Below are positions 12,048 to 53,763 of a stretch of 64,000 bases of DNA, in pieces. This DNA comes from an uncultured Rhodospirillaceae bacterium (GTDB lineage Bacteria; Pseudomonadota; Alphaproteobacteria; GCA-2731375): positions 76,754 to 140,753 of the forward strand of contig CAYFPL010000008.1 in assembly GCA_964344935.1 (NCBI GenBank), given 5' to 3'. The notes under the pieces are model-generated. The model searched no databases. It was not told the DNA's origin and was given only the letters and a program-made list of their open reading frames with translations. A program made the translations under genes and the position numbers. The stretch's first letter is position 1; each line of letters opens with the position of its first letter.

Positions 12048-13199
12048 ATGTCGCGAAAATCAATTCTGATCACATCGGTTTTGGCAGCGGCCGTTGTTGC
12101 GGCGCCTATGCAGATGGCAGGTGCAGTGGAACCGGTTAAACTGCGCTGGGCATCGGATCATAATGGACCGCCGCATCCAGCCGCCATCGCGGAAGTCTAC
12201 TTTGCTGAACAGGTGGAAAAGCGCATTCCCGGCAGCAAGGTACAGATTTTCTGGGCCAAGTCACTCTATACCGTGCCTCAGGGCACCAAAGCGTTGACCC
12301 AGGGCAACCTGGAGATCCTTACAGGCCAGTTCGGCAAGACCTCCAGTGTTGAACCTTTAGCCAATGTGTTGCTGGGCGCAGGCAAACTGTCCACCGTCGG
12401 GGCCATCGATGCGGTCGATCGCACCAAGACTTTCGCGGCCCTGGCTGATCATTTCAACAAAGCCCATGACATCACCATCATGGGGGCGGGACATTTGAGC
12501 ATGTATATGGGCGCAGGTGCGGTGAAGGGCCGGTTGATCGGACCGGCCGATTTCTCCGGCAAGAAGATGCGCTCCATGGGTCCGGCCGAGAACGCCCTGT
12601 TGAGCGCGCTCGGCGCCAATCCCCAGGCCATGGCTTTCGGCGACGTACCGCCGGCCCTGCAGACCGGCGTCATCGACGGCCTGCTTACCTCGCTAGGTGG
12701 TTTCAATGCCACCAAGGAGCAGGCCCCCTACTTCACCGTAGCTGGCCTCAACGGGATCGTCGGGGATTACTATTGGTTTGGCGTTTCGAACCGCTGGTGG
12801 AGCCGGCTGTCCAAGGAACAGCAGGACGTCCTGGCCGACATCATCAAGAACGATTTCATCCCGTTTCAGCGCGTCATCAACTATTGCAACGACCAGCGCA
12901 CCTTGGCCAGGTTCGTCACCACGGATAAGAGCGCACCGGGCATCTATGTCCTGAGCCAGGCAGAAGCCGCCATCATCAAGAAGGCCGAGGGCGGCGCCAC
13001 CAACGAATGGATCAAGACAAAGGTCAACGATGTCGGCGACAAACTGGTCGACCAATTCTCCATGGAAGCGGAAGCCTTGGTGAAGGCCAACCCGCCGGGT
13101 TCCCATGCCTTGGAGAAAACGGACTGCTCGAAGTACGAAAAGTATTTCGCCAAGTACGGCAAGGGGGGAGACCTGTACAAGGCGAAGAGCCGGAAATAG
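12048..13199 (+). CDS. TRAP transporter substrate-binding protein (DctP family)
   Basis: Signal peptide MSRKSILITSVLAAAVVAAPMQMAGA, and a ~380-aa DctP-like fold positioned immediately before the DctQ/DctM genes. Confidence 0.8.
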   Translation: MSRKSILITSVLAAAVVAAPMQMAGAVEPVKLRWASDHNGPPHPAAIAEVYFAEQVEKRIPGSKVQIFWAKSLYTVPQGTKALTQGNLEILTGQFGKTSSVEPLANVLLGAGKLSTVGAIDAVDRTKTFAALADHFNKAHDITIMGAGHLSMYMGAGAVKGRLIGPADFSGKKMRSMGPAENALLSALGANPQAMAFGDVPPALQTGVIDGLLTSLGGFNATKEQAPYFTVAGLNGIVGDYYWFGVSNRWWSRLSKEQQDVLADIIKNDFIPFQRVINYCNDQRTLARFVTTDKSAPGIYVLSQAEAAIIKKAEGGATNEWIKTKVNDVGDKLVDQFSMEAEALVKANPPGSHALEKTDCSKYEKYFAKYGKGGDLYKAKSRK

Positions 13200-13877: not shown

Positions 13878-15161
13878 ATGCTGCCCCTTGCATTGATACT
13901 GTTCGGATTGCTGATCGTTGGCGTTCCCATCGGCATTTCCCTTGCGGGCTCCACCGCCGTTTTGGTCTTGTTCGATGACTTTCTGAGCTTCAGCACCCTG
14001 TTCGAAGCCTTTTTTATCTTCATCAGCAAATACACGCTGATCGCCATTCCGTTCTTCATCTATGCCGGTTTCCTGATGGAGAAAACCGGCCTTGTTCGTG
14101 GGCTGTTCAATCTCGCGGATGCTGTGATCGGTTGGGTGCCGGGCGGTTTCGCCTATGCGACCCTGATTGCCGCCGTATTGTTCGGCGCCATTTCCGGCTC
14201 CTCCACCGCTATGGCCGCAGCCATGAGCGTCATCGCCTACCCGGAGATGATCAAGCGCGGCTATCCAAAATGGATGGCGGCCGGCGTGATTGCCTCCGCC
14301 GGCGGCATCGCCTTGCTGATCCCGCCCAGCATCACGCTGATCCTGTTCGGGGTAATTACCGAGATTTCCATTGTTGATCTTTTCTTCGCCGGCGTCGTGC
14401 CAGGCATCATGCTGGCGATCAGCGATGCGGTGATCATCGTTTCCGTATCGATCTTCATCGTCAAACTGCCCGCTGGCACGTTCGAGCCGCGCAAATGCTG
14501 GAGCGCTTTCAAGGAAGCGTTACCGGCCTTGCTGATGCCGGTGCTGGTCCTGGGCGGCCTTTATGGCGGTCTGTTCACGCCCACCGAGGCCGGTGCAGCG
14601 GCAGCCTGTTATGCCCTGGGTTATGGCATCATTTTCAAGCGTGGACCCTTCATTAGGGAATTGATGGGGGTGACCCGCCGGGCGATGAACCTGACAGCCG
14701 TTGTGTTCTTTCTCCTCGGCTGTGTTGGCATATTCCAGTTCTTCCTGGCCAACATGGGCTGGCCGCAGGAAATCGCCGCCTGGGCCGGCAACCTGGGCCT
14801 GACCAAATACACTTTCCTATTTGCCCTGATGGCCACACTGCTGTTGCTGTCTATGTGGCTGACAGGCGTGGCCATTCTTGTGCTTACCGTGCCGGTCTAT
14901 TTTCCCGTGGCGCTTTCGTTGGGCGTGGACCCGGTACATCTGGGGATTTTGACCGCACTGTGCATCGAAATTGGCAGCGTCATTCCACCGGTCGGTTTGA
15001 ACCTGTTCGCCGTCAGTGGCGTAACCGGCCTGCCGGTGACACAAGTCATACGCGGCTCGTTCCCGTTCTGCATTTCAGACACCGTTGTGCTGATCATCGT
15101 GCTTTTGTTCCCCATGCTGGCGCTCTGGCTGCCAAGCATGCTGATCACATCCCACTTCTGA
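13878..15161 (+). CDS. TRAP transporter large permease (DctM family)
   Basis: 427-aa polytopic membrane protein. MLPLALILFGLLIVGVPIGISLAG is a typical DctM N-terminus. Confidence 0.85.
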   Translation: MLPLALILFGLLIVGVPIGISLAGSTAVLVLFDDFLSFSTLFEAFFIFISKYTLIAIPFFIYAGFLMEKTGLVRGLFNLADAVIGWVPGGFAYATLIAAVLFGAISGSSTAMAAAMSVIAYPEMIKRGYPKWMAAGVIASAGGIALLIPPSITLILFGVITEISIVDLFFAGVVPGIMLAISDAVIIVSVSIFIVKLPAGTFEPRKCWSAFKEALPALLMPVLVLGGLYGGLFTPTEAGAAAACYALGYGIIFKRGPFIRELMGVTRRAMNLTAVVFFLLGCVGIFQFFLANMGWPQEIAAWAGNLGLTKYTFLFALMATLLLLSMWLTGVAILVLTVPVYFPVALSLGVDPVHLGILTALCIEIGSVIPPVGLNLFAVSGVTGLPVTQVIRGSFPFCISDTVVLIIVLLFPMLALWLPSMLITSHF

Positions 15162-15278: not shown

Positions 15279-17233
15279 TTACGGCGACATCGCCGGCGAC
15301 CAATCCGCAAGCGGCGTTATCTTGACTGTATCCGGCGGCGTGGATGCGCCGGGCTCCAGGACGACCACGATGCGGCGAGATTCGCCATTCGCGACCCCAT
15401 CAACATTGATGACGATCTTTTTGATGCCTTCATTCGGTCGCTCGGGCGGGGGTCTTTGCGCCGAGCGTATTTCGAACCTCGCGCCGGCGGGTGAGACGAT
15501 ACGGGCCCCCAGGGACCGGCCATCCTGGCGCAGAACGAGTGTTCCGGGGGCCTGTGGGTTCAGCATTGGCCGTGCACGCGTATGCATCCCCCAGGTAACG
15601 GGTGCGGGCCTTTGTCCGGAAATCTCATCCTGGATCAGGAAGCGGCGCCCTTGCAATAACGCCAGCCCGCGACGGATGCCGCCCGGCGCAGCGCCATAAG
15701 CCGGCCCCAAATCGGCGACGGCGAAACTTAGCCGGGGTGATTGATGGAATGACATCAACGGGGCCTCGGCATCCAGGGCCTGATCTTCATCACCGAAAGT
15801 AAGCGTATTCTGTCCGGTGGTGGTAGTCCGGTAATAATCCCACCTTTTACGCCCGAAATAGCCGGGCAGAAGATAGTTGCCGGGTCCCAGATCCATCGCC
15901 CACCGCACACCCATGCCATCGAGGACGAAACTGCCAAGATCGAGATGGGTATGATGGCCGTGGTTATTGCCGCCCTTGAGAGCCGCAAACAATGCTTTCT
16001 TGTCGTTCCAGGCCGATCGGAAAGCCGCGACATGAATGGCCCCAAACTGCCGGCCTAATGGAAGTCCTAATAAGCTAGGGCCCTTGCCAGCATCGTACCG
16101 GCGCCAAAGAAGATCGAATGCCAATCGCGATCCAGGCGAGGCAGCACTGTCCAACCATGTATCGATTGCGCGATCGAAACGGCTGCCGAGCCATGCCAGG
16201 GCGACGCGGTTTGGCTTCACTTCGCTGTCTCCGAAATTGAAGGCGAGGCCCGTTGGACCGGTCAGATGCAGCAGAAAATCACCGGTCGTCTGAAATCCAG
16301 GCGTGTTCGAGAAATCGAACGACGGACCCATGATAGCTGGTACGGCATCGTGGTAGAGCGCAGCATATCGGCTGGCATAGGACCAATAGCCTGGCCCTTC
16401 GGCAAACCCGCCGTCAGGCTCATATTCCGCCATGCCGTGTTTGATGGATTGCCTCACCTCACCTAGCAGCCGGTTCGACAATTCCGGCTTGTGATTGCGT
16501 ATGACGAGACCGGCGAGCGCGAGGCCACTGTTGCAAACGATATTCCAGTTGAAGGTCTCGACCGGCCAGCCATGATCGGCGCGTTCCGCGGCGGATACTT
16601 CATGGACACGGCGAACATCGGGACGGATCCAGGATGATCCCTTTGCCGGGGCGCCGGCGCTATCATACAAGGCCAGGCCAGGCAGAATGGCTTTTTCCAC
16701 CAATGCCTCGACCAAAATGCTTACGTCGGCCTCGCTCAATCTCGGCGCCAGCCAGCTCATACCGATCGAAACCGCCGCAGCCATTTCCGCCGTATCCAGG
16801 AAATGCGCGGGGTTCCAATGTTTGAACGCCGCGACGGCCAACAATTCCGCGCGGCCGCGGGCGGCATAGCGCTCATCTTGCCAAAGCCTCCAGGCAAGTC
16901 CCAGCACCGAGGCTCGCTTCAGCATTTTGCGCGAGGTCTTCAACATCAGGGCTGGTTTGCCGTGATAGGTCACCTCGAACGTGTGTGCCATAAGAGGTTT
17001 TTTCAGAAGCGACTCGGCCTTGTGGCGTAGCTCGTCAAGGCGACGGGCTGCATTGGTGTCCGATTTGGCGGTATTCACCAATTCCACCAAACGATCCGGC
17101 GTAAGCATGATTTGCGGCAAGGCCTGCGCTGCTGCTGGTGTGCAAATGTCGATCTGAAACGCGAACAGGGCGCACGTGGCTGCGATGAGGCCAAGCCTCG
17201 ACGTCCAACAGAAAAAAGGGGGCCGCTTCATCA
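15279..17233 (-). CDS. Heparinase II/III-family protein (polysaccharide lyase-like), secreted
   Basis: GGNNHGHHTHLDLGSFVLDGMGVRWAMDLG is the Hepar_II_III C-terminal signature. The N-terminal signal peptide is MKRPPFFCWTSRLGLIAATCALFA. The track ORF starts at 17366; the likely start is MMKRPP. Confidence 0.75.
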
Positions 17234-17365
17234 TGCAATGCTCCCGTTTATAGGCGCCGGGAACGTTATCATACCTTTGCCCCATGCCGCCAAAACCGGC
17301 GGAAACGGTGCTACTGCCATTTGTCAAAACCCAGAAAGCCCGATACCCTCCCATTTGCAGCCGCA

Positions 17366-20300
17366 ATGTCGCTGGGGGCCGTATTGCATCGACTCGCCCG
17401 GTTTATTCTCGCAATTTTGGTTTCCGGCCCAGCCGTCCTCTTGCTGGATCCAGGTTTTGCATTGGCCGATGCCTGCACCTACCCAACCAAACAACCCAAA
17501 CCGCTACTGCCGGCCGATCCAGAGTTATGCAGGACCTTTGACCCAGTTGTCCGCAATCCTTCCGGCCTGCCGCAGAGAGCCTACCAATTAAAGCTGCAGG
17601 TTTACCTTGACGGCTTTTGCCATCGTGACAAGAAAGCGGGCTGGGTGCGCGACAAGTTCGTGCGCGACACGGGCCCGAGCACTGCACAGCTGTCGCAAGG
17701 AATCTGGCAAAACAGTTACCACGGTACCCATGCTCCAGTGGTGATCTGGTATTCGCCCGAGATGTATACGTGGATGAAGCAGAACCGGACCGCATCGGAC
17801 GAAGACAAGAAGTCCGACACGTCTGCGGTGCCCGATGGTGCCATCATGGTGAAGGAAATGTATCCCGCGCCCGGTTCCGTTTGCCGGGAGGTGACGCCGG
17901 AGTACTTGCTGCCGATCACTCAGGGTGCCGCGATCATGGTCCGCGACGCCAAGGCGAGCCACGATGGCTGGTACTGGGGCTGGTTCGGATGGAGCGGTTG
18001 GCAGCCCGATTACCCGGCCGAAAAGCCGAAGGCGCTTACTAATATGGGATTTGCCCAGTATTGCTTGAACTGCCATTCCTCGGCCCGCGGCAACCAAACG
18101 TTCGCAGCTTTGAAAAATATCGAGAACGAGCCGGGCCGCCCACTGGTGTATTTGAGCGCGCATGAGAATCCGGTCCCGGGCGCGGCCGGTAAGCATCGTG
18201 AAAAAACTTCGTCAAGCACTGGCCCGCCGCGGCGAACAGTCGGTCTCGATGCCTACAACCCGGCATTTCAGGCTGCATTCAAATTGAAGGACGGCGCCCC
18301 CGCGCCAAGCGAGGCAACCGTATCCAAAATGCCGCCGCAAAATTATGACCACACATTCGTTTCGGCCGGCGGCCCGACCATCCACGACGAATATCTGACG
18401 TCGAGTCAGTGCCTCGGCTGCCACGACGCCGGCAGTACTGGGTTGAGCTTTGAAATGGCGATTCCGGTCGCACCGGACGATCCCGCCGCGCGCGGGGACC
18501 AAATGTGGAATCACTCACCCTATGCGACGTGGCGGACCTCGCCCATGGGTCTCGCCGGTCGCGATCCCATATTCTTTTCCCAACTGGCCAGCGAGACCCA
18601 GAGTTTTCATCCCGGTATTTCCAAGGTTGTGGAGAACACCTGTCTTGGCTGTCATGGCATCCTGGGGCAACGGCAGTTCGCCATCGACCATTTTGCCAAG
18701 AGCGGGCCCGATGCCGGTTCTGTCGAAGAGAGATGCGGTGCCTTTACCCGCGAAAAGCTCGATTCCGTGCCTTGGCCGGAGCATAAATCCGCCAATCCAC
18801 GCCTAGCAGACGCCAAACACGGTGCCCTGGCCCGCGACGGTATTTCATGCCTCTCCTGCCATCGCATGGTGCTCGGCGAGGCGGCATCAGCACGGGCGGC
18901 CGCTCAGGAACAGAATGACTGCGTTATCGCACGGCAGGAGTTTCTCAACCCGGGTCTGCAAGGCTTCGCCAAGACATTCACCGGCTCATTCCTGGTTGAT
19001 GGTCCCACGAACATATATGGCCCCTTCAAGGAACCTAAAGCCACTCCTATGCGGGATGCCTTGGGGAATACGCCGGCCCATTCATCGACCATCTCCATGT
19101 CGCAGACCTGCGGCACCTGTCACACGGTGCATTTGCCGGTATTTCACAAGGGCAAACAGATCGGCCATGTTTACGAGCAGTTGACCTTCCCCGAATGGGC
19201 TTTCAGCGCCTATAGAACCGGGATTTCGCCTGACGGCCCATTACCCGAAGGCGCCGGTCAGCGCGCCAAAAGCTGCCAGGATTGCCATATGCCGTCAGTC
19301 GATCCTGACGGCTCGCCGACCCGTTCACGCATCGCTTCTATTCAGGAATATTCGAATTTCCCCCAGGCCGAATTCACCCGTGCGCCGGACGAGATCGACC
19401 TGCCCATCCGGGAGGGATTTTCACGTCACACCCTGGTGGGATTGAATATCTTCCTGACCAAGATGGCGCAGCAGTTTCCGGATGTGCTGGGTATTGGCAC
19501 TCAGGACCCGATGATGGGCAAGCGTGGGATCGATCCATTGATCTACACCGAACGAAAGATGCTGGATCAGGCCGCCAACGCGACCGTAAAAATCTCAGTT
19601 CCGTCGGTTAGGGTCGACAACGACAAGGGCACGCTCAACGCCGATGTGCGGGTCGTCAATCATGTCGGCCACAAGTTTCCTTCCGGCGTCGGCTTTCGCC
19701 GTGCTTTCATCTCATTCGAAGTCATGGACCAAGGTGGTGAGGTCATCTGGTCATCTGGCGGAACCGATGGCGTGGGCCGAATTGTCGGCGACGACGGCAA
19801 ACCGCTAGCGGGCGAGATGTGGTGGACAGCGGATTGCGCCAAGCGACTTGAACCGAACAAACGCATTCACCAACCGCATTACCAGACGATTTCGCGCCAG
19901 GATCAGGTGCAAATCTATCAGGAACTGGTTAGCGCGCCGGCGGACATCGGAAGCCCGCAATGCGGCCACGGCGCCCCCCCACAGGGAGCGTTGACCACTT
20001 CATTCCTGTCCATATGTGCTGAAGTCAAAGACAATCGGCTTTTGCCTCATGGATACTTGCCGCTTGAAAAGCGGATCGCGATTGCACGTGCGCTTGGGGC
20101 GAAGGCGGACATGGCGGAAGATTCCGGCCCCACGGCGGTTGGCAATGATCCCGACTACGCCGACGGAAAAGGCGGCGGCGATACGTTGAACTATGCCATC
20201 CCCCTATCGGACCTAAAGGGTGAACCGGCGCAAGTGCGCGCCCGTATGTGGTATCAGGCGACGCCGCCGTTCTATTTGCAGGACCGGTTCTGCACGGCCC

Positions 20301-20419
20301 GTGGCAACGACACAAGCCGCCTTTACTATCTCGCCGGCCATCTGAACCTGGACAATTCCCCAGCGGATAACTGGAAACTGCTCGTCGGTGATACGGGACC
20401 GCGCGAGATCCAGCCGTGA
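17366..20419 (+). CDS. Large secreted hexaheme c-type cytochrome of unknown function
   Basis: Six CXXCH motifs: CLNCH, CLGCH, CLGCH, CLSCH, CGTCH, CQDCH. The signal peptide MSLGAVLHRLARFILAILVSGPAVLLLDPGFALA precedes them. The final ~380 aa carry no haem motif. Confidence 0.7.
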   Translation: MSLGAVLHRLARFILAILVSGPAVLLLDPGFALADACTYPTKQPKPLLPADPELCRTFDPVVRNPSGLPQRAYQLKLQVYLDGFCHRDKKAGWVRDKFVRDTGPSTAQLSQGIWQNSYHGTHAPVVIWYSPEMYTWMKQNRTASDEDKKSDTSAVPDGAIMVKEMYPAPGSVCREVTPEYLLPITQGAAIMVRDAKASHDGWYWGWFGWSGWQPDYPAEKPKALTNMGFAQYCLNCHSSARGNQTFAALKNIENEPGRPLVYLSAHENPVPGAAGKHREKTSSSTGPPRRTVGLDAYNPAFQAAFKLKDGAPAPSEATVSKMPPQNYDHTFVSAGGPTIHDEYLTSSQCLGCHDAGSTGLSFEMAIPVAPDDPAARGDQMWNHSPYATWRTSPMGLAGRDPIFFSQLASETQSFHPGISKVVENTCLGCHGILGQRQFAIDHFAKSGPDAGSVEERCGAFTREKLDSVPWPEHKSANPRLADAKHGALARDGISCLSCHRMVLGEAASARAAAQEQNDCVIARQEFLNPGLQGFAKTFTGSFLVDGPTNIYGPFKEPKATPMRDALGNTPAHSSTISMSQTCGTCHTVHLPVFHKGKQIGHVYEQLTFPEWAFSAYRTGISPDGPLPEGAGQRAKSCQDCHMPSVDPDGSPTRSRIASIQEYSNFPQAEFTRAPDEIDLPIREGFSRHTLVGLNIFLTKMAQQFPDVLGIGTQDPMMGKRGIDPLIYTERKMLDQAANATVKISVPSVRVDNDKGTLNADVRVVNHVGHKFPSGVGFRRAFISFEVMDQGGEVIWSSGGTDGVGRIVGDDGKPLAGEMWWTADCAKRLEPNKRIHQPHYQTISRQDQVQIYQELVSAPADIGSPQCGHGAPPQGALTTSFLSICAEVKDNRLLPHGYLPLEKRIAIARALGAKADMAEDSGPTAVGNDPDYADGKGGGDTLNYAIPLSDLKGEPAQVRARMWYQATPPFYLQDRFCTARGNDTSRLYYLAGHLNLDNSPADNWKLLVGDTGPREIQP

Positions 20420-27566: not shown

Positions 27567-27749
27567 ATGGGTATGGTGGCTGACGGCACCGGGATATGGG
27601 AATGCCTTTCGTGCGGCCATCATTATGACCCGGCCGTTGGCGCGCCGGAGGATGGTATTCCGCCCGGCACACCCTTCGCGGACTTGCCAGAAGATTGGAC
27701 CTGTCCGGAATGCGGCGTGCATAAAGGCAACTTCGCGCCCTTGCGCTGA
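27567..27749 (+). CDS. Rubredoxin
   Basis: [12 protein letters not shown]...[27 protein letters not shown] carries both the CxxCG and CPxCG iron-binding knuckles at the spacing of a ~54-aa rubredoxin. Confidence 0.85.
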
Positions 27750-27933: not shown

Positions 27934-29580
27934 ATGAGAAAACATTTCTGTTGTGGGCTATTCGCTGCGATCATGTTGGTTGCCCCGCCATCGGGAAGCC
28001 TACACGCCGCCGCACCAGTTCAGTCAGCCGTTACACTTGAGACATTGGCAGATCGCATAGCGCGACTGAAAGGGCTGTCCAACCCAAATATTGGTCTCGC
28101 TGAATCTCAAGTAATTCAATGGGCAACCTACCGTTGGACGCGCCGGCTGCTGGAGCGCGAACGCTATACCCATCCCGATATCGTCTTGTATTGGGTCAGG
28201 CGCAGCCGGGTGGCACGTTTTGCCTCTGACACCAATAAATTGGTTGAAAAGCTGCGGCCGGGCTCCGACTTCGCCGCTCATCTCAAACAGGCCACCGACA
28301 AGTACCGTGAGATGGAAAAAATGGCGGAAGTGACCCGCTACCACTCGGATATCAATCACGCCGATAAAACGAGACTTCTGAAAACTTTCAAAGACCCTCG
28401 GCACCGTCGGCTGGTACAGGGGTTGGTGCAGTCGTTGCTGGATGATCTAGGGGAACTTGACCCGGAAACCAACGATAGCTGGCGGCCGTTCTATGAATAT
28501 CTCCATGGGGATATCTTCGACCATGAGCATTGGGCAGAGGGCGAACTCAATAAGGATCTCAAGGTCCAAAAGGACATGGCACAGGTCTTTCTCGATGGAT
28601 TGTATGAAGAGGGACGGCTGGATGTAGTGTCGAAGCATGAAGTCTCTGCGCTTATGAGGTTCGATGCAGAGGAGGCCAGCTACCTGGGCGCGTTGTTCAT
28701 GACCGGACTGGGGCCGCAGGACACACCGCGAAAGGCGTTGGCTTCTGCGTATCTGGACTATGTCATGGCATTTGATTCCTGGCTGACGGACATGATTACC
28801 CGGCCCAATGTTATTCAGTCCGACCGTCATCTTGATGATTTGTGCACGGTTTTTCCTTGCCAGATAAGTCTGCGCCGCCGCGCCGCCTGGCTTCGACACG
28901 GCTATCAGATATTGGCGGTTGACCTGCTGTCGACCCTTCCCGACCGCATCATCGACGGTCAGGCGTTCTCTCGTCGATTGAACGACGAGGAACAGGAACA
29001 GATGCGCCATACCCGCGAACGCCTAAAGGAATTTGCGGAAGATTGGCGGCGAAACGGAAAGTTGGCGAGCCCACTGTTTGCTGTTGTCCTGCCCGGTCCA
29101 AACGACACCATCGATTGGCAATGGGGCGGCTGGTTGGCCTGGGAATGGGTAACGGACAAGGAGGTCAAGGACTGGCGCAGAACGGGACGCGTGGTGGACG
29201 CGTTTGATATGGTCTGGCTGCTGCCGGCCGACGCCGTGGGGCGAGTCCCCGATCGTTTCGAGGCATTGCTGGAAATGGGAGCCAAACAGGTCATTTTGGC
29301 GTTGTCGCCCTGGATTCTCGATATGAAGGCAGCACTTGAATGGCCGTCTGGGCCTCTGCTGGAACTGCACAGGCGCGGCTATTTCCTGGGTATTGAAAGG
29401 TCTGGATGCTACGACGATCCCATGTTGTGCTGGATTGATTATGATCCCAATAAAGGCGACCTCGGCGCGGTGTCCAGACGGGTGTGCGATATCTATCGCA
29501 ATCACGGATATCGAAAATTCACAGTTAGTTTTGCGCCCGGATGGGGCAAACCCGCGCAACAATTGACCTGCGCGGATTGA
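27934..29580 (+). CDS. Secreted hypothetical protein, operon gene 1
   Basis: Signal peptide MRKHFCCGLFAAIMLVAPPSGSLHAAAP. The ~549-aa protein has no recognisable domain. It is preceded by an AT-rich promoter-like region. The track ORF starts at 27877. Confidence 0.55.
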   Translation: MRKHFCCGLFAAIMLVAPPSGSLHAAAPVQSAVTLETLADRIARLKGLSNPNIGLAESQVIQWATYRWTRRLLERERYTHPDIVLYWVRRSRVARFASDTNKLVEKLRPGSDFAAHLKQATDKYREMEKMAEVTRYHSDINHADKTRLLKTFKDPRHRRLVQGLVQSLLDDLGELDPETNDSWRPFYEYLHGDIFDHEHWAEGELNKDLKVQKDMAQVFLDGLYEEGRLDVVSKHEVSALMRFDAEEASYLGALFMTGLGPQDTPRKALASAYLDYVMAFDSWLTDMITRPNVIQSDRHLDDLCTVFPCQISLRRRAAWLRHGYQILAVDLLSTLPDRIIDGQAFSRRLNDEEQEQMRHTRERLKEFAEDWRRNGKLASPLFAVVLPGPNDTIDWQWGGWLAWEWVTDKEVKDWRRTGRVVDAFDMVWLLPADAVGRVPDRFEALLEMGAKQVILALSPWILDMKAALEWPSGPLLELHRRGYFLGIERSGCYDDPMLCWIDYDPNKGDLGAVSRRVCDIYRNHGYRKFTVSFAPGWGKPAQQLTCAD

Positions 29581-29589: not shown

Positions 29590-30786
29590 ATGGTGAAGAC
29601 ACATCTGATTGCCCTGCTGTTGACCGGTTTCATTGTCGGCCTGGTGTCGGCAGCGGGAAGTGCCATACCAGCGCGGGCGGATCAGGTTATTCATACCGGC
29701 CCGTTCGAATTGGCGGCGAATTACGAAAAGAGAAAGCCGCGGGTATTTTCCAGAAAAGGAAAAGTGAAGCCCCGCCAGGATCCGCGGATAGATCTCGATC
29801 TTGGTCGAATGAAGTTGACCCAAGGCAAGGAAGCCGAAGCACTGCCGCTGCTGCAACGCGCTGCCGCCGCCATGCCGGAGCGAGCAGAACCTTACCGGCT
29901 TCTCGGTGTCACGCATTTCAAGGCGGGACGCTATGGCGAAGCGATTGTCCCATTGCGTCATGCCCTACTTGTGGCAAGGGACATCGACCCTTCCCTCGCC
30001 CGTGCGCTAGGTATCGCTTACGTCGTGATGGGCGAGTTTGCAAAAGCCGTGACAGTGTTCCAATTGGGTTTGGAAGAAGGCCGCGTCACACCCAATTTGG
30101 AAATGGAACCTCGCTGGCTCGCCGAATGGCTGATCGCAGCAACATTCGCGACCGGCGACAACGATGACGCCAAGGCCGCCCGGCGGCGCTGGTCATCGCA
30201 ACTGCATGAGGCGGATGACGTCGCGAGTGTTTCCAGTTCGCGGCTGTGTGACGCGGCTGACATGGCGTATGAAAATAGTGTTCGCTACGGCGCGTTGCGT
30301 GGATATACCGTCTGCCTTTCTGCGCTGAAGCGGCATTGGTTTAAGGTTGGCGGCGAACGACGCAAGCGAACCCGTGAAAAGGCCGATCAGGTCCTTGAGA
30401 AAATTGTCCGGCTCTATCGGGAAATCCCTCTAAGACCCGCATTGCCCCCGGCGGCCTATGAGCTTGCCGAGAAAGCCGCAACGGCTGTCAACAGTGGCAA
30501 TGTCGGTGATGCCCAATGGTATTACCGGCGGGCGCTGGAAGAAGCCCCGTGGTGGGCGGACGGCTATTTCAATGCGGCTTTGGTCGACGCCGTGGCGTGG
30601 AGCGAGGCCACGGCCATCGATACCATGAAGGTCTATCTGCGCCTCGAACCGGGAGGTAGGTTTGCCCAGAGAGCACATCAAAAGATAGCCTTGTGGACGC
30701 AGCGGTTAGATGGCCTGATTGCCCGCGGCGCCCATGTCGATGAAGAGTCCGGTCTGGTGATGACCCCGGATAACGAGGAATGGTGA
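29590..30786 (+). CDS. Secreted TPR-like hypothetical protein, operon gene 2
   Basis: Signal peptide MVKTHLIALLLTGFIVGLVSAAGSAIPARA, with TPR-like helices (AEPYRLLGVTHFKAGRYGEAIVPLRHALLV). Starts 10 nt after the gene 1 stop. Confidence 0.55.
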   Translation: MVKTHLIALLLTGFIVGLVSAAGSAIPARADQVIHTGPFELAANYEKRKPRVFSRKGKVKPRQDPRIDLDLGRMKLTQGKEAEALPLLQRAAAAMPERAEPYRLLGVTHFKAGRYGEAIVPLRHALLVARDIDPSLARALGIAYVVMGEFAKAVTVFQLGLEEGRVTPNLEMEPRWLAEWLIAATFATGDNDDAKAARRRWSSQLHEADDVASVSSSRLCDAADMAYENSVRYGALRGYTVCLSALKRHWFKVGGERRKRTREKADQVLEKIVRLYREIPLRPALPPAAYELAEKAATAVNSGNVGDAQWYYRRALEEAPWWADGYFNAALVDAVAWSEATAIDTMKVYLRLEPGGRFAQRAHQKIALWTQRLDGLIARGAHVDEESGLVMTPDNEEW

Positions 30787-30787: not shown

Positions 30788-31786
30788 ATGAGGTGGTCTC
30801 GCATCATATCGCCCTTGCTGCGTGCGCCGGTGCTGGTCGTCGGGCTATTGCTTTTTGGTGGTTCGCTATCTTCGGCCTTGGCTGGTTTTTCGATCAGTTG
30901 TGGGAAATGTTGTATCTGTGCCGCCTGTTGTGCTAGCGGTGGTAGTAGCAGTAGTGGCAGTAGCGGCGGCAGTTTCTGGAGTCCGCCGCCCGATGCCAGT
31001 CACCTCCGGCCGGCAAAACCGAAGCCACCCCGCAGAAGCAAGGCCACCCGCGCCTATGAAAAGACCGTAGCCGCTGAAAAATTGAACCTTCCGGCCGAGA
31101 TCATTCCCCTGGCCGCACGGGTCCCCGGCAGAGACATACCGCTCGAGGATGAAACCAGCGCCGACATCACACGCAAATCCCTGCATTTTCGCTGGGGCCG
31201 TCCAGATTTTGGAAACAGTCCATACGCATCTTTGGCCTTTGCACCTGAAGGTCAGTTCCTGGCCGCGGAAAAACAAGACAAGAGGCTGCACCAGTCTCTT
31301 TCCATATTGGCGACGGCTTCGCAGTGGCAAGATCGAGTGTCTTCGACAAGTCCCGAAGACAGCCATTTTCTTGCAAGTGAAGCAGCGTTCGCCATGCTGG
31401 GGATGAATCTCAGGGTGAGTGTAGAGGCCGATGACAAACCGTTGTACGGCGTGCCGCAATCCGCCTTTGAAGAATTCAGGAGGTGGATTAGCGAAGCTAG
31501 AAACGCTGAACGTCAATTGGATGCTTTCAAGCAAGGTTATGAAGCCGCCCTCATTCAATTGGCAGAAAAAAAGAAACGGGTAAGCGGAGATTGTCTCGCC
31601 GATAACCGTTGCTCTGGCCCAAACGAGGTCAATGTCATGCAGGAGATCAGTGAAGCCTCCAAACGCCTCCAGATCCAGTTACAGACGATCAACCGTCAGA
31701 ACGATTTCATTGAGGAACGAAAACGCGAGATCAACGACAAGATCCGTTACTACGTCGAGCTTTTGCCGAATCAGAGAGACCAATGA
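30788..31786 (+). CDS. Secreted hypothetical protein with an N-terminal Cys cluster, Gly/Ser linker and C-terminal coiled coil, operon gene 3
   Basis: Signal/TM segment, then SCGKCCICAACCASGGSSSSGSSGGS. The C-terminal region is coiled-coil-like (KRLQIQLQTINRQNDFIEERKREINDKIRYY). The start lies 2 nt after the gene 2 stop. Confidence 0.55.
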   Translation: MRWSRIISPLLRAPVLVVGLLLFGGSLSSALAGFSISCGKCCICAACCASGGSSSSGSSGGSFWSPPPDASHLRPAKPKPPRRSKATRAYEKTVAAEKLNLPAEIIPLAARVPGRDIPLEDETSADITRKSLHFRWGRPDFGNSPYASLAFAPEGQFLAAEKQDKRLHQSLSILATASQWQDRVSSTSPEDSHFLASEAAFAMLGMNLRVSVEADDKPLYGVPQSAFEEFRRWISEARNAERQLDAFKQGYEAALIQLAEKKKRVSGDCLADNRCSGPNEVNVMQEISEASKRLQIQLQTINRQNDFIEERKREINDKIRYYVELLPNQRDQ

Positions 31787-47757: not shown

Positions 47758-49347
47758 CTAGACCTTCGCCGGTTCAGTGCCCGGCCGCCGACTGACAACC
47801 CTACCTTTCGGAATCCGCAACAGGGTTGCCGGCACCATGGCGATGAAATAGGTGGCGCCGAGGAACAGGAACACATCCCGGAAAGCTAACATATTAGCCT
47901 GGGCATAGAGACTGGTGCCCAGCATCTGCAATGCCGCCAGGGGGTGCAGTTCCGTCGGCCAACCGAGCTGTGACAGAAGGCTCGACATGCCTTGCATCAG
48001 ATCCTGTGTCAGGATGTTGTCAGGGGTTTGTGACCCCGCCAGAGCCTCGGAAAAGACCGCGGTGCGGTGTTCCAGCGCAACGGCGATCATATTGACGCCC
48101 ATGGCGCCGCCCAATTGGCGCATGAAATTGACGGCGCCGGAGCCTTGGCTGACCAATTCGCTCGGCAGACTATGTAGAGCGGTGGCATTAATGGTCGGGA
48201 TGACAAAGGCCAGTCCGATACGGCCGATCACCAGCCACAGCGCAAAGGTCCAGAACGGTGTGTCCGTATGTGCCCCGGTCATCAGCATCGCCGAGAAGGC
48301 GAATGCACAGAGGCCGCCCAGGATCAGCCAGTGCCGCGGCAACCGGTCTGCCAGGCGGCCGCCAATGGGCATCAGCATCATCATGGTCAATCCCGCCGGT
48401 ACCATCAATAATCCGGAGCGCGTCGGGCTATAACTTTGCACGGTCTGAACGAACAATGGGATCAGATAGGTGGTGCCGTACAGGCCCGCGCCCAGGGCCA
48501 TACGCACAACTGCCGCCGCCGCGAATTGCTTGTTGAGGAACAGGCGCAGCTGCAGAATTGGTTCCGACGTACGCCATTCCCACCACAAAAAGGCCACGAA
48601 CGAGAGGACAAAAGTAGAGAAATAAACAGCAACGATGGGCGCATGCCAGCCTTCCCGCTGTCCCGAAGACAGGGCAATCAATATTGAGAAGACAAAGACC
48701 ACCAGCAATGAAAGCCCAGTCCAGTCAAAGGCCGGCTTGGCCTCCTTGGTGGTGCGCCATGGCATGAACAGCCAGGCCAGAAGGCTGCCCAGGGCCGCCA
48801 CGGGGATTGAGGCGAAAAAGACGTAGTGCCAGTTGAAGGCATCCAGCAGAACGCCGCCGAAGAAGGGTCCCAAGGTCGGCGCCACCACGACACCGACCCC
48901 GAATAGACCCATGGCCTTGCCCCGTTGGTGAATGGGAAAAACCTGGAACATCAGGACCATGGAGAGCGGCTGTACCAGCCCGGCGCCCAGACCCTGCAGC
49001 ACCCGGCCGGTAGTCATGATGTCGATATTCGGCGCCAGCCCGCCCATGAAGGCGCCGATGGCAAAGATCACCATGGCGCCCAGGTAGGTGGCGCGCATGC
49101 CGAAGGATCGAACGAACCAATCGTTCAGCAGCATGGCCACGGTCATGGAAGCGATATAGCCTGTGGCCAGCCAATGCGCCGTATCCTGACCGACGCCAAA
49201 GGCGCCCATGATCACAGGAATAGCCACGTTGATCATGGTGGCGTTCAGCAGCATGGAAACGATACCTAGGACCACCGTGAAGGTCACGAAGGCCCGATAT
49301 TTCGCGCCGTACCGTTCGAAAAGGATCTTGACCGCGGCTTCCGGCAT
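47758..49347 (-). CDS. MFS DHA2 (EmrB/QacA-type, 14-TMS) efflux permease, tandem paralog 1
   Basis: 529 aa. INVAIPVIMGAFGVGQD...LLNDWFVRSFGMR...LLDAFNWHYVFF blocks are shared with the next two genes. It starts 4 nt after the paralog 2 stop. Confidence 0.85.
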   Translation of the reverse strand: MPEAAVKILFERYGAKYRAFVTFTVVLGIVSMLLNATMINVAIPVIMGAFGVGQDTAHWLATGYIASMTVAMLLNDWFVRSFGMRATYLGAMVIFAIGAFMGGLAPNIDIMTTGRVLQGLGAGLVQPLSMVLMFQVFPIHQRGKAMGLFGVGVVVAPTLGPFFGGVLLDAFNWHYVFFASIPVAALGSLLAWLFMPWRTTKEAKPAFDWTGLSLLVVFVFSILIALSSGQREGWHAPIVAVYFSTFVLSFVAFLWWEWRTSEPILQLRLFLNKQFAAAAVVRMALGAGLYGTTYLIPLFVQTVQSYSPTRSGLLMVPAGLTMMMLMPIGGRLADRLPRHWLILGGLCAFAFSAMLMTGAHTDTPFWTFALWLVIGRIGLAFVIPTINATALHSLPSELVSQGSGAVNFMRQLGGAMGVNMIAVALEHRTAVFSEALAGSQTPDNILTQDLMQGMSSLLSQLGWPTELHPLAALQMLGTSLYAQANMLAFRDVFLFLGATYFIAMVPATLLRIPKGRVVSRRPGTEPAKV

Positions 49348-49351
49348 ATAG

Positions 49352-50938
49352 CTATCCCGGCCTTGGCCGCAGGTTGGCCGGTATCTTGGAGGTTGTCGGT
49401 CTATCCCGCAGCAGTAATGCCGGGATCATGGTGGCGAAATAAACCACGGCAACAAGCAGGAAGACATCGCCATAGGCCATCATCGATGCCTGGGAATAGA
49501 CGCTGCGGCCGACAAGGTAGAGGGCACCCGCCGGCGTCATTTCAAACGGCCAGCCTAACTGACCTAGCAAATGGCCGAGCTGGGTCATGATCTGGAGGGT
49601 TGCCGCATTGTCGGGCGTCTGCAGTCCGGCAAAGGCATCTGAGAAGAATGCGGTGCGCCTTTCCAAGGTCAATGCCAGCAGATTGACGCCGATGGCGCCC
49701 CCCAAATTCCGTGAGAAGTTCAAGGCGCCCGAGCCTTGGCTCAACAGTTCTGGTTTCAATGTGGATACAGCACTGACCGTCAAGCTAGGCATCATGGCCG
49801 CGAGGCCAATCCGGCCCACACAGATCCAGGCAGCAAAAACCCAGAACGGCGTGTCCGTGTGGGCCTGCATCATCAACAGCGAGGAAAAGCCGAACATGAA
49901 GAGGCCGAACAGGATCATCTGATAGCGGGGCAATTTATCGCTGAGGCGGCCGGCGATGGGGAACATTGCCATCATCAGCAAACCGCCCGGAATCATCAAC
50001 AATCCCGACCGCGTCGGGCTATAGCTTTGCACCGTCTGCACGAACAGCGGAATGACGTATGTGGAACCATAAAGACCGACGCTCAACACCATGCTGACGA
50101 AGACCGAGGCGGCGAACTTTTTGTTCCAGAAAACCCGCAACTGCAGAATCGGCGATTCAATCGACAATTCCCAGATGATGAAGGCGACGAGGGAAATGAT
50201 AGCGACCGAGAAATAGACCGAGATGATGGGCGCCCCCCAGCCGTCCCGCTGTCCATTGGACATGCCGGTCAGGAACATGCCGATGAATAACGCGACCAGG
50301 ATCAGTCCGGTCCAATCGAAGGTGGGAAGCGGTTCCTTTCGGCCTTTGCCGGGCATGAAAACGATGGCCAGCAACACGCCAACGACCGCCACCGGGGCCG
50401 ACATGAAGAACACGTAATGCCAGTTGAAGGCATCCAGCAGCACGCCACCGAATGTCGGCCCCAGGGCGGGTGCCACGATGATGCCGACACCGAACAGACC
50501 CATGGCTTTGCCGCGCTGGTCAACGGGAAAGACCTGGAACATCAAGATCATGGACAGGGGTTGAACGATCCCGGCGCCGGTACCCTGTAGCACGCGAGAG
50601 AGGATCATGATGTCGATGGTCGGGCTTAGTCCACCCATGATAGCGCCGAAGATGAAGATCGACATGGCGCCGATATAGGTCGCCTTCATGCCGAAAGCGC
50701 GGACAAACCAATCATTCAGCAGCATGGAGACGGTCATGGCCGCAATGAAGCCGGTGGACAGCCAATGCACCTTGTCCTGGCCGACGCCAAAGGCGCCCAT
50801 GATCACCGGAATGGCCACATTGATCATAGTCGCTGTCAGCACCATGGCCATGGTGCCCAGCATGGCGGTAAACGAGACGAAATAGCGATAGCGCGGGCCG
50901 TAGCGCGCGAACATCGCATCTATGGCCGGATTGCCCAT
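49352..50938 (-). CDS. MFS DHA2 (EmrB-type) efflux permease, tandem paralog 2
   Basis: 528 aa, collinear with paralogs 1 and 3 along the full length (~80% aa identity by eye). Confidence 0.85.
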   Translation of the reverse strand: MGNPAIDAMFARYGPRYRYFVSFTAMLGTMAMVLTATMINVAIPVIMGAFGVGQDKVHWLSTGFIAAMTVSMLLNDWFVRAFGMKATYIGAMSIFIFGAIMGGLSPTIDIMILSRVLQGTGAGIVQPLSMILMFQVFPVDQRGKAMGLFGVGIIVAPALGPTFGGVLLDAFNWHYVFFMSAPVAVVGVLLAIVFMPGKGRKEPLPTFDWTGLILVALFIGMFLTGMSNGQRDGWGAPIISVYFSVAIISLVAFIIWELSIESPILQLRVFWNKKFAASVFVSMVLSVGLYGSTYVIPLFVQTVQSYSPTRSGLLMIPGGLLMMAMFPIAGRLSDKLPRYQMILFGLFMFGFSSLLMMQAHTDTPFWVFAAWICVGRIGLAAMMPSLTVSAVSTLKPELLSQGSGALNFSRNLGGAIGVNLLALTLERRTAFFSDAFAGLQTPDNAATLQIMTQLGHLLGQLGWPFEMTPAGALYLVGRSVYSQASMMAYGDVFLLVAVVYFATMIPALLLRDRPTTSKIPANLRPRPG

Positions 50939-50939
50939 C

Positions 50940-52529
50940 TCAGCCCGTCCTTGCCGCTAGAACCGGCCGTGCCTTGGGCCGCGGCTTCCAATCCCGCAGC
51001 AACAGCGCCGGGATGGCAGCAATGAAGAAGGCGACTGCGACAAATAGGAAGAGGTCGCGGAACGCCATCATGGATGCCTGGGAATAGACGCTTTGGCCGA
51101 CCAGGTACAATACGCCGGTCCGGGCCATTTCGAACGGCCAGCCCAATTGGCTCAGCAAATGCCCGATCTCGAGCATGAATTGCTGGGTAGCGCTATTGTC
51201 CGGTGTTTGCAGGCCGGCAAACGCATCGGAAAAGAACGCAGTGCGCTGTTCCAGGGTGACAGCAATGATGTTGATGCCAACCGCACCGCCTAGGTTCCGC
51301 ATAAAGTTGAGTGCACCGGCGCCTTGGCTCAAATGGTCCGGTTTCAGGGTGGACACGGCCGTCACCATCATGGTCGGCATCATGGCCGCCTGCCCTAACC
51401 GCCCCAGCATCAGCCACATGGCGAAAACCCAAAAGGCCGTGTCGGTACCCGCCTGCATCATCAAGAGACAGGAAAACCCGTAAACAAAAAGGCCGAACAA
51501 GGTCATCTGATAGCCGGGCAGCTTGTCGGCCAGACGGCCGGCAATGGGCAGCATCAGCATCATGAAAATACCACCCGGAACCATCAACAGGCCGGAGCGC
51601 GTGGGGCTGTATCCCTGGATGGTCTGCACGAACAGGGGCACCAGGTAAGAGGTGCCGTAAAAGCCGAGACTCAGCACCAGCCCAACAATAATGGAAGCGG
51701 CGAACTTCCGGTTCGCGAACACCCGTACTTGCAGAATCGGATTGGCGGAGACCAACTCCCACCAAATGAAGGAAATACCCGACACCAGGCCGATCGAGAA
51801 CAACACGGAAATTATTGGCGAGCCCCAACCTTCCCTTTGGCCGCTGGACAACCCGGTCAATGAACAGATGATGCACAAGGACACCAGCACCAGGCCGGTC
51901 CAGTCGAAATCGGGCAGACGCCGTTCACCGCGCTCCCCACCGGGCATGAATATGGTCGCGAGGAAGATACCCAGGGCCGGCACCGGAACCGACATAAAGA
52001 AGACGTACTGCCAATTGAAGGCGTCCAGCAGAACGCCGCCCACGGTGGGGCCAACAGCCGGCGCAGCCATAATACCGACACTTAACAGACCCATGGCCCG
52101 GCCCCGTTGGTCGACGGGAAAGACTTGCAGGATCAACACCATAGCCAGGGGCTGGGCGACGCCGGCGCCGACGCCCTGCAGCGTCCGGGCCAGGATCACC
52201 AGGTCGATGGTATTGGACAGCCCGCCCATGACGCCGCCGAATATGAAGATGGCCATGGCGCCGATATATGTGGTGCGCATGCCGAAGGAACGCACGCACC
52301 AGTCATTCAGCAGCATCGAGACAGTCATGGCGGCGATGAAGCCGGTAGAGACCCAATGCACCTTGTCCTGGCCGACACCGAAGGTGCCCATAATCACGGG
52401 AATGGCCACGTTGGTCATGGTCGCCGTCAGGGCCATGGCCATGGTGCCAAGCATGGCCGTGAAGCTTACATAGTAGCGATAGCGCGGCCCAAACCGCGCG
52501 AACATCGCGTCAATCGCGGCTGATTGCAA
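50940..52529 (-). CDS. MFS DHA2 (EmrB-type) efflux permease, tandem paralog 3
   Basis: 529 aa. Its start overlaps the HlyD gene end by 20 nt. Confidence 0.85.
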   Translation of the reverse strand: MQSAAIDAMFARFGPRYRYYVSFTAMLGTMAMALTATMTNVAIPVIMGTFGVGQDKVHWVSTGFIAAMTVSMLLNDWCVRSFGMRTTYIGAMAIFIFGGVMGGLSNTIDLVILARTLQGVGAGVAQPLAMVLILQVFPVDQRGRAMGLLSVGIMAAPAVGPTVGGVLLDAFNWQYVFFMSVPVPALGIFLATIFMPGGERGERRLPDFDWTGLVLVSLCIICSLTGLSSGQREGWGSPIISVLFSIGLVSGISFIWWELVSANPILQVRVFANRKFAASIIVGLVLSLGFYGTSYLVPLFVQTIQGYSPTRSGLLMVPGGIFMMLMLPIAGRLADKLPGYQMTLFGLFVYGFSCLLMMQAGTDTAFWVFAMWLMLGRLGQAAMMPTMMVTAVSTLKPDHLSQGAGALNFMRNLGGAVGINIIAVTLEQRTAFFSDAFAGLQTPDNSATQQFMLEIGHLLSQLGWPFEMARTGVLYLVGQSVYSQASMMAFRDLFLFVAVAFFIAAIPALLLRDWKPRPKARPVLAARTG

Positions 52530-53763
52530 TCTCGACCTCGACCATCATGCCGGGCCGCAGAAGACCTTCAGTCTGCGGCACGGCGATTTTTACCGGCAGA
52601 CGCTGGGTAATCTTAGTGAAGCTACCCGAGGGATTGGGGCTGGGCAGTAAGGCAAACTGGTTGGTCGCGGCGTTGCCGATGCGCACGACTTCGCCGACCA
52701 CATCCAAATCGGGATAGGCATCGACGGATATCTTGGCCTTCGCCCCAAGTTTGACGTTGCGGATGTCGGTTTCCTTTACGTTTGCCTCGACCCAGATGAC
52801 GCTGGAATCGTGCATCAACAGCAAACGCTGGCCCCGGGCCACGTATTCTCCGGGCTCGATGAACGTACGATCGACGGTGCCGGCGCTGGGCGCCTTGATG
52901 GTGCGATCCGAAAGATCAAGCTGTTGACGCTCGAACTCGGTGCTTAGGCGTTCTTCGTCGAATTGCAGTGAGGCAATGCGGCCGCGCAGGACATCCATAC
53001 GTTGACGGTCCGCCTGCGCCTCCATGACAGAAGCATTGGCCGCCGCCACATCCGCCTGGCCCTTAAGAACCTGTTGGCCCGCCATGCGGTAAGCCGTGCG
53101 CAATGATTCCCAACGCTGTCGCGAAATCACCTTTTTCGCCAGCAGGGATTGCCCGCGCTCGAAATCGTTCTTGATCTGCTCCAGTTCCGTATCCAGACCT
53201 GCCTTGGCAGCCTGTGCCGCCGTCAGGGCGGCGCGGCTGGCTTCCAACCGGCCACGGGTTTGCTGATCGATCATCCGCACTTCGGCTTCGATCTGTTGCC
53301 GTTCGGCCTGCAGGGATTTGCGCTGAGCCGCGATTTCCCGAAGTCGCAGGGCGGAATCACGATTGTCGATCATAATCAGGGGATGGTTGGCTTCCACCTT
53401 ATGGCCCTCCGAGACCGGCACATCCGTGACCCAGCCGTCGATGCGGGAGGAAATCATAATCATGTCCGCCTTGATGCGGGCGTCATAGACCACGACGTTG
53501 GTATAGCGGCCATAGATCCAATAGGTCAGCCCGGCGATGCCGACGAGCACCGCCGCAACCAGAAGAACCCGGCCGATGCCCCGCCGCAGGCCTGAGGATC
53601 GGCTGGGCAGTCCGCCTACTTCCGTTTGGCCCGATTGCCCCGACTGGCCGGTAGCGGTTTCCGCTTCGCTGTCCGCCGGGTTGGTTTGCTTGTCATCCTG
53701 CGGCTGCAGCCGCTGGGGATTCGATTTGTCGTTCACCTGATCAATCCGATCCTGTCGTTCCAT
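52510..53763 (-). CDS. HlyD-family membrane fusion protein (EmrA-type)
   Basis: N-terminal TM anchor, coiled-coil region (QRKSLQAERQQIEAEVRMIDQQTRGRLEASRAAL) and C-terminal beta-barrel domain; 417 aa. Confidence 0.85.
   Translation of the reverse strand: MERQDRIDQVNDKSNPQRLQPQDDKQTNPADSEAETATGQSGQSGQTEVGGLPSRSSGLRRGIGRVLLVAAVLVGIAGLTYWIYGRYTNVVVYDARIKADMIMISSRIDGWVTDVPVSEGHKVEANHPLIMIDNRDSALRLREIAAQRKSLQAERQQIEAEVRMIDQQTRGRLEASRAALTAAQAAKAGLDTELEQIKNDFERGQSLLAKKVISRQRWESLRTAYRMAGQQVLKGQADVAAANASVMEAQADRQRMDVLRGRIASLQFDEERLSTEFERQQLDLSDRTIKAPSAGTVDRTFIEPGEYVARGQRLLLMHDSSVIWVEANVKETDIRNVKLGAKAKISVDAYPDLDVVGEVVRIGNAATNQFALLPSPNPSGSFTKITQRLPVKIAVPQTEGLLRPGMMVEVEIAISRD

Follow-up and report, generated by a model that had tools for sequence, protein, structure and literature searches.

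The window analysed here, a 64,000-nucleotide stretch of contig CAYFPL010000008.1 from an uncultured Rhodospirillaceae bacterium, holds a cassette of four same-strand genes, g1 to g4, each of whose products carries a signal peptide (Table 1). The third of these, g3, is a real gene and is the subject of this analysis, as its predicted exported product bears six cysteines within 11 residues shortly after the signal peptide. The g2 stop codon (TGA, 30784-30786) lies 1 nt from the g3 ATG, which suggests that the two genes are translationally coupled, and the g3 stop and g4 start share a 4-nt overlap (ATGA). This arrangement agrees with a preliminary description of the same DNA, in which g3 had been called the third gene of an operon. 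The number of cysteines in the mature products is even throughout the cassette (eight in g3, four or 18 in g4, six in g1 and two in g2), and the same holds for homologs of all four. An even cysteine count is a statistical signature of disulfide-bonded exported proteins (PMC7678975).

The six-cysteine motif and the g3 family

The cysteines of the motif are C38, C41, C42, C44, C47 and C48, and together they make up what we refer to as the head of g3 (head peptide GFSISCGKCCICAACCASGG). The preliminary description had quoted the cluster string CGKCCICAACCASGG exactly as it stands at residues 38-52; its count of seven cysteines in 13 residues should read six in 11. At a cysteine frequency of 1%, the binomial probability of at least six cysteines per 11-residue window is ~4e-10, so this density is not a chance occurrence. 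Five relatives of g3 were found among ~15 billion proteins searched (P0002, P0003, P0004, P0006 and P0008), and the pattern I[SR]CGKCCIC[AP]xCC is kept in four of the six family members (P0001, P0002, P0003 and P0006). Within these four, which share 24-37% overall identity, nine of the 11 head positions are invariant (C38, G39, K40, C41, C42, I43, C44, C47 and C48), as is I36 just ahead of them. Mean pairwise identity is 86% in the 11-residue head window compared with 25% over the whole protein, and at the DNA level the four six-cysteine loci differ within the motif only by synonymous third-position changes. Together, the identity of the window and the synonymous-only codon changes indicate that the motif is under strong purifying selection. 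In P0004 and P0008 the six-cysteine motif is replaced by GCVA[SL]C, aligned to G39, C44 and C48; six cysteines are thereby exchanged for two, and the cysteine count stays even.

The relatives were recovered in two ways. A word-indexed search of 5.8 billion clusters returned a single one, P0002, at 36% identity. The other four (P0003, P0004, P0006 and P0008, a fragment) came from phmmer, run exhaustively over 1.84 billion representatives. Two other phmmer matches, the WD40 proteins P0005 and P0007, were discarded as spurious, their AFSPDG repeats having matched the FAPEG of the g3 central motif. The identical g3 protein is present on three independent contigs of one ENA metagenome project, and we found no other public copy. 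Pattern and tblastn scans of GTDB representative genomes, JGI metagenome contigs and IMG/VR gave no further members, and nothing was returned by tblastn of g1, g2, g3 and g4 against plasmid records or of g3 against phage records. The six-cysteine motif, for which the preliminary description had proposed a search in related genomes, recurs in P0002, P0003 and P0006; a direct DNA scan for CGKCCICxxCC gave five matches, all of them unrelated, alternate-frame TGY-rich simple repeats (CCICCVCCGCG...).

Searches for known families left g3 without an assignment. Pfam and NCBIfam gave no match to g3 beyond sub-threshold coiled-coil noise, and across g1-g4 they matched only the TPR repeats of g2. PADLOC had no match for g1-g4 and PHROGs matches were confined to E above 0.09, which places none of the four in a known anti-phage or phage family. 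A PDB sequence search with the family profile returned only coiled-coil noise (E 0.04 or worse), and Foldseek searches of the PDB and BFVD returned nothing at E <=0.001, generic helical hairpins ranking top with TM-scores <=0.27. A literature search on the motif string found nothing relevant. The statement in the preliminary description that no characterised bacterial family has this architecture therefore holds, as homology searches gave no common annotated family for g3. The partners are no more readily placed. For g1 there was no Pfam, NCBIfam or PDB match, and its single-sequence structure model had a predicted local distance difference test score (pLDDT) of 38; g4 matched no family, and PDB sequence searches with g4 and with the short g4 forms gave nothing at E below 0.04. 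The g3 family and the cassette are unclassified and extremely rare, and their component features are all of known kinds.

Gene context was available for four homologous loci, L001, L005, L008 and L009. In each, a g2 homolog with TPR repeats, the APWWADGY module and the ...TPDxEGW tail stands directly upstream of the g3 homolog; at L009 it is fused to a g1 homolog, with g1 matching the N-terminal half of the fusion. Directly downstream at L001, L005 and L008 is a g4 homolog with the CPPxS...FCxCLPG...C N-terminal domain, which here continues into an 18-cysteine protein of Cx3C pairs, a pattern that suggests stacked, disulfide-stapled helical hairpins. The corresponding gene at L009 (8055-9149, + strand) is not g4; it encodes an unrelated 364-residue exported protein with three cysteines, whose C-terminal GDILLV...H...AVCSERAA resembles, by eye, that of permuted papain/NlpC-P60 enzymes and which had no Pfam match. 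In most loci successive genes adjoin or overlap at their stop and start codons, and the g2-g3-g4 order is conserved in independent loci (L009 being without g4). Both features argue for a stoichiometric complex of the encoded proteins. A profile search with the g2 C-terminal domain brought no extension of the cassette: all it retrieved was a widespread TPR-like module, APWWADxYYN, in exported proteins that are otherwise unrelated and whose neighbourhoods are unrelated too. In the C-terminal half of g2 (30187-30783) and in P0009-P0015 this shared module takes the form 'APWWAD(G/A)Y(F/Y)N ... YL.L.P' and follows 'PPxIPxEARRH'; one protein that carries it also has a PDZ domain.

Architecture of the g3 protein

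The N-terminus of g3 is MRWSRIISPLLRAPVLVVGLLLFGGSLSSALA|GFSISCGKCCICAACCASGGSSSSGSSGGS, with the bar at the predicted cleavage, and it reads as a Sec-type secretory signal (MRWSRIISPLLR / APVLVVGLLLFGG / SLSSALA|G). It includes the one hydrophobic segment of the protein (residues ~5-35), which the preliminary description had also placed at the N-terminus. A small-x-small site (ALA, AQA, AKA, VLA or SKS) lies a few residues before the first cysteine in every family member, and the g3 signal region has no twin-arginine motif. Judged by these sequence features, g3 would be exported via Sec and cut by signal peptidase I at ALA|G. A type IV pilin-like signal was considered and rejected: G|F occurs, but the hydrophobic stretch precedes the cut and Glu is missing at +5.

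Behind the head comes the Gly/Ser run ASGGSSSSGSSGGS (residues 49-62), which is the poly-Ser/Gly linker of the preliminary description. It opens a spacer whose composition is conserved in all members although its sequence is not (18% identity). An AlphaFold2 model of g3, built from the six-sequence alignment, had a mean pLDDT of 57.6, with low confidence at residues 1-81 and 97-158; both segments are probably disordered, as judged from the model. The helical core is the second most conserved region after the cysteine motif, with 36% identity, and VRVSLE forms a further conserved block. In the two long C-terminal helices, 224-263 and 278-322, hydrophobicity power has its maximum at 3.5 residues, a/d occupancy is 0.91 and 0.69 and shuffling gave p values of ~0.0005 and ~0.013, respectively. 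A periodicity of 3.5-3.6 recurs in most homologs despite the 14% identity of the hairpin region. The heptad pattern that the preliminary description had seen over ~120 C-terminal residues is thus real over ~100 of them; in the AlphaFold2 model, which it had suggested as a check, the heptad helices are present and pack as an intramolecular antiparallel hairpin, not as a long stalk. If any part of g3 resembles a stalk, it is more probably the Gly/Ser/Pro spacer than the coiled coil. Long antiparallel heptad helices resembling the g3 hairpin occur in LipC (5nen), HlyD (5c22) and BAR-type bundles, some of which are periplasmic. We regard this resemblance as generic because E-values were at least 0.1, TM-scores 0.17-0.27 and root mean square deviations >13 A; g3 also differs from these proteins in having no lipoyl or beta-barrel membrane fusion protein domains.

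The two remaining cysteines of mature g3, C269 and C275, fall in the turn of the hairpin. They are invariant in the four six-cysteine members, with the spacing C-x6-C in P0003, and P0004 carries an equivalent pair (Cys275 and Cys281 in its own numbering). These residues probably form a disulfide that staples the hairpin.

Table 1. Features of g3, its cassette partners and the short g4 forms. Positions are those of the window unless a locus is named, and residue numbers are those of g3; AF2, AlphaFold2.
Feature	Position	Strand	Basis and remarks
g1, 548-residue exported protein without assigned family	27934..29580	+	Open frame from 27877, likely start ATG 27934
g2, 398-residue exported TPR protein	29590..30786	+	TPR profile matches; C-terminal APWWADGY module, ...TPDxEGW tail
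Ribosome-binding site GAGGA	30775..30779	+	Read from sequence; 8 nt before g3 ATG, within g2 end
g3, 332-residue exported protein (predicted)	30788..31786	+	Open reading frame, ATG start; five homologs at 24-37% identity
Signal peptide (predicted), residues 1-32	30788..30883	+	Basic n-region (R2, R5, R12), core APVLVVGLLLFGG, c-region with ALA at its end, followed by G33
Six-cysteine motif CGKCCICAACC, residues 38-48	30899..30931	+	Tandem CxxCC-I-CxxCC; most conserved window of the protein
Low-complexity spacer, residues 49-84	30932..31039	+	Gly/Ser run, aromatic residue, Pro/Lys-rich PAKPKPPRR; pLDDT below 50
Central motif LHFRWGRPDFGNSPYASLAFAPEG, residues 131-158 (RPDFGxSP)	31178..31261	+	Alignment; low pLDDT, predicted disorder
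Helical core, residues 160-203	31265..31396	+	AF2 helices 160-183 and 189-203, pLDDT 64-74; ILATA and SPEDxxFLAxxAxFAxLG blocks
Antiparallel heptad hairpin (modelled), helices 224-263 and 278-322	31457..31753	+	AF2 pLDDT 76-94; 3.5-residue periodicity
C269-x5-C275 in hairpin turn	31592..31612	+	At either end of short helix 267-272, which AF2 places between the long helices
g4, 329-residue exported protein	31783..32772	+	N-terminal four-cysteine domain CPPHS...FCRCLPG...C
Short g4 forms, 172-191 residues, 18 mature cysteines	L001 1125-1655, L005 11058-11576, L008 1915-2490		No family or PDB match

Possible roles of the six-cysteine head

We tentatively favour a reading in which the head is a disulfide cross-linking connector on a tether, and hold it with less than even confidence. 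It is well supported that g3 belongs to a conserved and probably translationally coupled group of four genes whose products carry signal peptides, and that the head is its most strongly conserved element; export, cleavage, oxidation of the cysteines and cross-linking are steps that we infer. In this reading g3 would be a subunit of the complex that the four proteins form. Signal peptidase I would cut at ALA|G, so that mature g3 would start five residues before the six-cysteine head, and a disordered spacer of ~35 residues, first Gly/Ser and then Pro/Lys, would link the head to a helical body ending in a disulfide-stapled antiparallel coiled-coil hairpin. In the oxidising periplasm the head cysteines may then form disulfides that tie copies of g3 to one another or to a partner in the complex, with the spacer keeping the cross-link flexible. 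We favour cross-linking because of the oxidising compartment, the even number of cysteines, the existence of a two-cysteine subfamily, the lack of nearby metal genes and an architecture like that of the Ena fibres of Bacillus.

In Ena1A and Ena1B the N-terminal connector places a Cys-Cys peptide at the mature N-terminus, with a flexible linker between it and the folded body, as would be the case in g3. The connector of Ena fibres forms covalent disulfides between subunits (bioRxiv 10.1101/2020.08.21.260141). The two systems differ in that Ena proteins have a DUF3992 jellyroll, are found on Gram-positive spores and use two connector cysteines, whereas g3 is all-helical, alphaproteobacterial and has six. 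There was no DUF3992 match or other sequence relation and the g3 body is predicted to be helical, so g3 does not belong to the Ena family; a cysteine-bearing N-terminal connector on a linker is all that the two would have in common. Clustered cysteines near a flexible Gly/Pro-rich segment also lock parallel chains together covalently in the IgG hinge and in the C-terminal cystine knot of collagen III. These share with the g3 head the close spacing of cysteines beside a flexible segment; they are eukaryotic and not homologous to g3.

Several observations weigh against a cross-linking connector. The non-cysteine residues G39, K40 and I43 are invariant as well, which a simple cross-linker would not obviously require, and six cysteines in 11 residues exceed what cross-linking needs. 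The grammar of the head, with CxxC and CC units and Lys or Gly between them, fits metallothionein-type clusters too. No cysteine-bearing partner is conserved in all loci; as L009 is without g4 and the cysteines of g1 are not conserved, any cross-link would be mainly homotypic. The AlphaFold2 model is uninformative over residues 1-81, and conservation statistics drawn from six known sequences are thin.

The main alternative, possible if doubtful, is that the head is a tethered mini-metallothionein, in which the six thiolates would hold a polynuclear cluster (Cu4S6 or Zn2S6), possibly bridged between chains, and serve to buffer, store or transfer periplasmic metal. The CCIC of the head is a CCxC motif as in Cox17, and six is the number of cysteines in Cu4S6 and Zn2Cys6 clusters. 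The tandem CxxCC units with interspersed Lys, Gly, Ala and Ile follow a metallothionein-like grammar, which makes the metal option of the preliminary description plausible, and the strict invariance of the non-cysteine residues would suit a defined cluster geometry. Metallothioneins and Cox17 CCxC sites share with the head their CxxC, CC and CxC units set among Lys, Gly, Ala and Ser, and six thiolates would fit a Cu4S6 or Zn2S6 cluster; they are nonetheless cytosolic or in the mitochondrial intermembrane space, small, cysteine-rich throughout and without homology to g3, which has a single 11-residue cysteine unit on an exported protein of 300 residues. Precedents for such chemistry in the periplasm are CopG, which binds a tetranuclear copper cluster via a CxCC motif, and Csp1, which stores 13 Cu(I) on cysteines (PMC7558416). 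CopG (DUF411) is likewise exported and has a dense cysteine motif with a vicinal CC that binds a cysteine-bridged Cu4 cluster. It differs, however, in that the motif is part of a thioredoxin-like domain which also has Met ligands, and in the linkage of its gene to copA, cus or cueO; g3 has none of these, had no Pfam or NCBIfam match to DUF411, is all-helical or disordered in the AlphaFold2 model and has no copper genes nearby. Csp1, with its Tat signal and a four-helix bundle lined by cysteines, offers no closer match, as g3 has no twin-arginine motif, matched no such family and carries its cysteines in an 11-residue disordered head rather than along helices. More generally, Pfam searches linked g3 to none of the CopG, Csp or metallothionein families, there are no His or Met ligands near the motif, and no metal-homeostasis gene (cop, cus, multicopper oxidase or P-type ATPase) lies near any of the five loci. 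Sec export without a twin-arginine motif would deliver the thiols to an oxidising compartment, and the subfamily of P0004 and P0008 manages with CxxxC alone.

The remaining explanations concern how the N-terminus is anchored or modified, and we consider each of them less probable. If the signal were an uncleaved anchor, the two CxxC units could act as a redox relay on the periplasmic side of the inner membrane, from which the Pro-rich spacer would carry the remainder of g3 into the periplasm in a TonB/TolA-like topology. The Kyte-Doolittle 19-residue average exceeds 1.6 for windows starting at ~4 to 31 and so runs into the cysteine motif, Pro/Lys-rich spacers resemble periplasm-spanning linkers, and CxxC is a classic redox-active motif. 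We nevertheless judge this improbable: the small-x-small site is conserved in all members together with a polar c-region and a helix breaker, the CxxC units have no thioredoxin fold around them, and the cassette encodes no DsbD- or CcmG-type partner. It is very unlikely that the head is instead a substrate for post-translational modification, with thiooxazole, thioether or other cysteine chemistry like that of ribosomally synthesised and post-translationally modified peptides, installed by g1 or by an enzyme encoded elsewhere. Cysteine-rich precursors with Sec signals are known, among them bufferins and other MNIO substrates, one proposed group of which has CxxCC (PMC12452194), and like g3 they place conserved cysteine motifs after an N-terminal Sec signal. 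An enzymatic role for g1 is possible because it has no assignable fold or family; its signal peptide, however, would place its action beyond the cytoplasm, where it would have neither ATP nor SAM. Bufferin-type precursors are also defined by an adjacent MNIO (DUF692) enzyme and its partner, and we found no DUF692 or DUF2063 match among the cassette genes or neighbours at the five loci, nor any radical-SAM, LanB/LanM or YcaO gene in the cassette or homologous loci. Moreover, g3 is a much larger protein of 332 residues that is predicted to fold, not a short precursor. Least probable of all, to the point of being barely credible, is the acyl anchor raised in the preliminary description, by which g3 would be a lipoprotein or S-acylated, with lipid on Cys38 or on several cysteines. 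Membrane-adjacent cysteine strings are palmitoylated in eukaryotes, and FSIS|C of the window protein, taken alone, fits a relaxed lipobox. However, the family has not kept the [LVI][ASTVI][GAS]C pattern with which signal peptides of bacterial lipoproteins end: positions -3 to -1 read S-I-S in g3, S-I-R in P0002, D-I-S in P0003, N-I-R in P0006 and D-S-G in P0004, so that P0002 and P0006 have Arg at -1. No NCBIfam or Pfam lipoprotein signal matched g3, and bacteria are not known to have multi-site S-palmitoylation machinery. A lipobox that is not conserved makes an acyl anchor unlikely, and alongside the conserved small-x-small site it argues for signal peptidase I and against a lipoprotein.

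Returning to the tethered head as a connector or metal site, it is conceivable, though we are doubtful, that the cassette encodes an undescribed extracytoplasmic assembly of Gram-negative bacteria in which g3 is held or acts via its six-cysteine head, either as a stalk-mounted mini-metallothionein or as a counterpart of Ena-type polymers. No characterised protein is related to either version in sequence or fold. The former, if true, would be the first mini-metallothionein that is Sec-exported and mounted on a stalk, its cluster of the Cu4S6 or Zn2S6 type lying apart from any folded domain; the latter would be a Gram-negative counterpart of disulfide-linked Ena-type polymers. Should the head turn out to hold metal in a thiolate cluster, or to knot subunits together through cystines, a new and extremely rare exported family would be defined along with three partner families, and bacterial extracytoplasmic cysteine chemistry would gain a minimal, portable module of 11 residues (CxxCC-I-CxxCC). 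No long-standing question would be settled by this; the value of the cassette is as a clean, testable orphan system of four small exported proteins and one invariant motif.

Genomic surroundings of the cassette

The CarB protein encoded in the window is <=73% identical to those of uncultured Alphaproteobacteria and of Rhodospirillaceae metagenome-assembled genomes, which indicates that the host is a divergent alphaproteobacterium. The cassette sits among core genes, with carB, greA, a DUF454 gene and a rubredoxin gene upstream, and P450, SDR and CHASE5 hybrid kinase genes downstream, followed further on by tgt, queA and gyrA. The rubredoxin gene (27567-27749, + strand) is directly upstream of the cassette and the P450 and SDR genes (32997-34968, + strand) are directly downstream. 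The homologous loci do not share these neighbours, which are therefore probably unrelated to the cassette.

Mobility of the cassette is possible. At L009 a Y1 transposase lies upstream, and at L005, beside the P0004 cassette, positions 2856-7350 hold a tRNA-Glu, a tyrosine integrase (DUF6538 and Phage_integrase) and a DNA_pol_B_2 polymerase. This integrase/polymerase block looks pipolin- or casposon-like, has a guanine plus cytosine (GC) content of 0.47-0.50 compared with 0.61 upstream, and ends upstream of the cassette, 0.7 kb short of its first gene and ~2.6 kb from the g3 homolog. Within 21 kb there was no second copy of the att repeat, and the block differs in composition from the cassette. 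For the cassette in the window, we rejected a mobile-element origin, given its unremarkable base composition (GC 0.54-0.59) and its core-gene neighbours. Also at L005, REP-like palindromic repeats (GTCCGCTTT...AGCGGAC) occupy intergenic positions 7799-7878, 12508-12699, 14900-14978 and 15583-15704, flanking the cassette and continuing further downstream.

Three further loci of the window were noted. On the (-) strand, 47758-54283 carries three tandem paralogous MFS_1 transporters of ~529 residues (47758-49347, 49352-50938 and 50940-52529), then an HlyD-family adaptor (52510-53763) and a MarR regulator (53741-54283), which together look like a triplicated EmrAB-like efflux locus. The (+) strand at 56983-62523 encodes an 898-residue protein with TPR and GT41 (O-GlcNAc-transferase-like) domains; after its gene come two of the radical-SAM type, of which the second also specifies a B12-binding domain. 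Finally, a (+) strand ORF at 17321-20419 encodes a protein of 1032 residues with cytochrome P460 and cbb3-type cytochrome c domains, which is unusually large for those domains.

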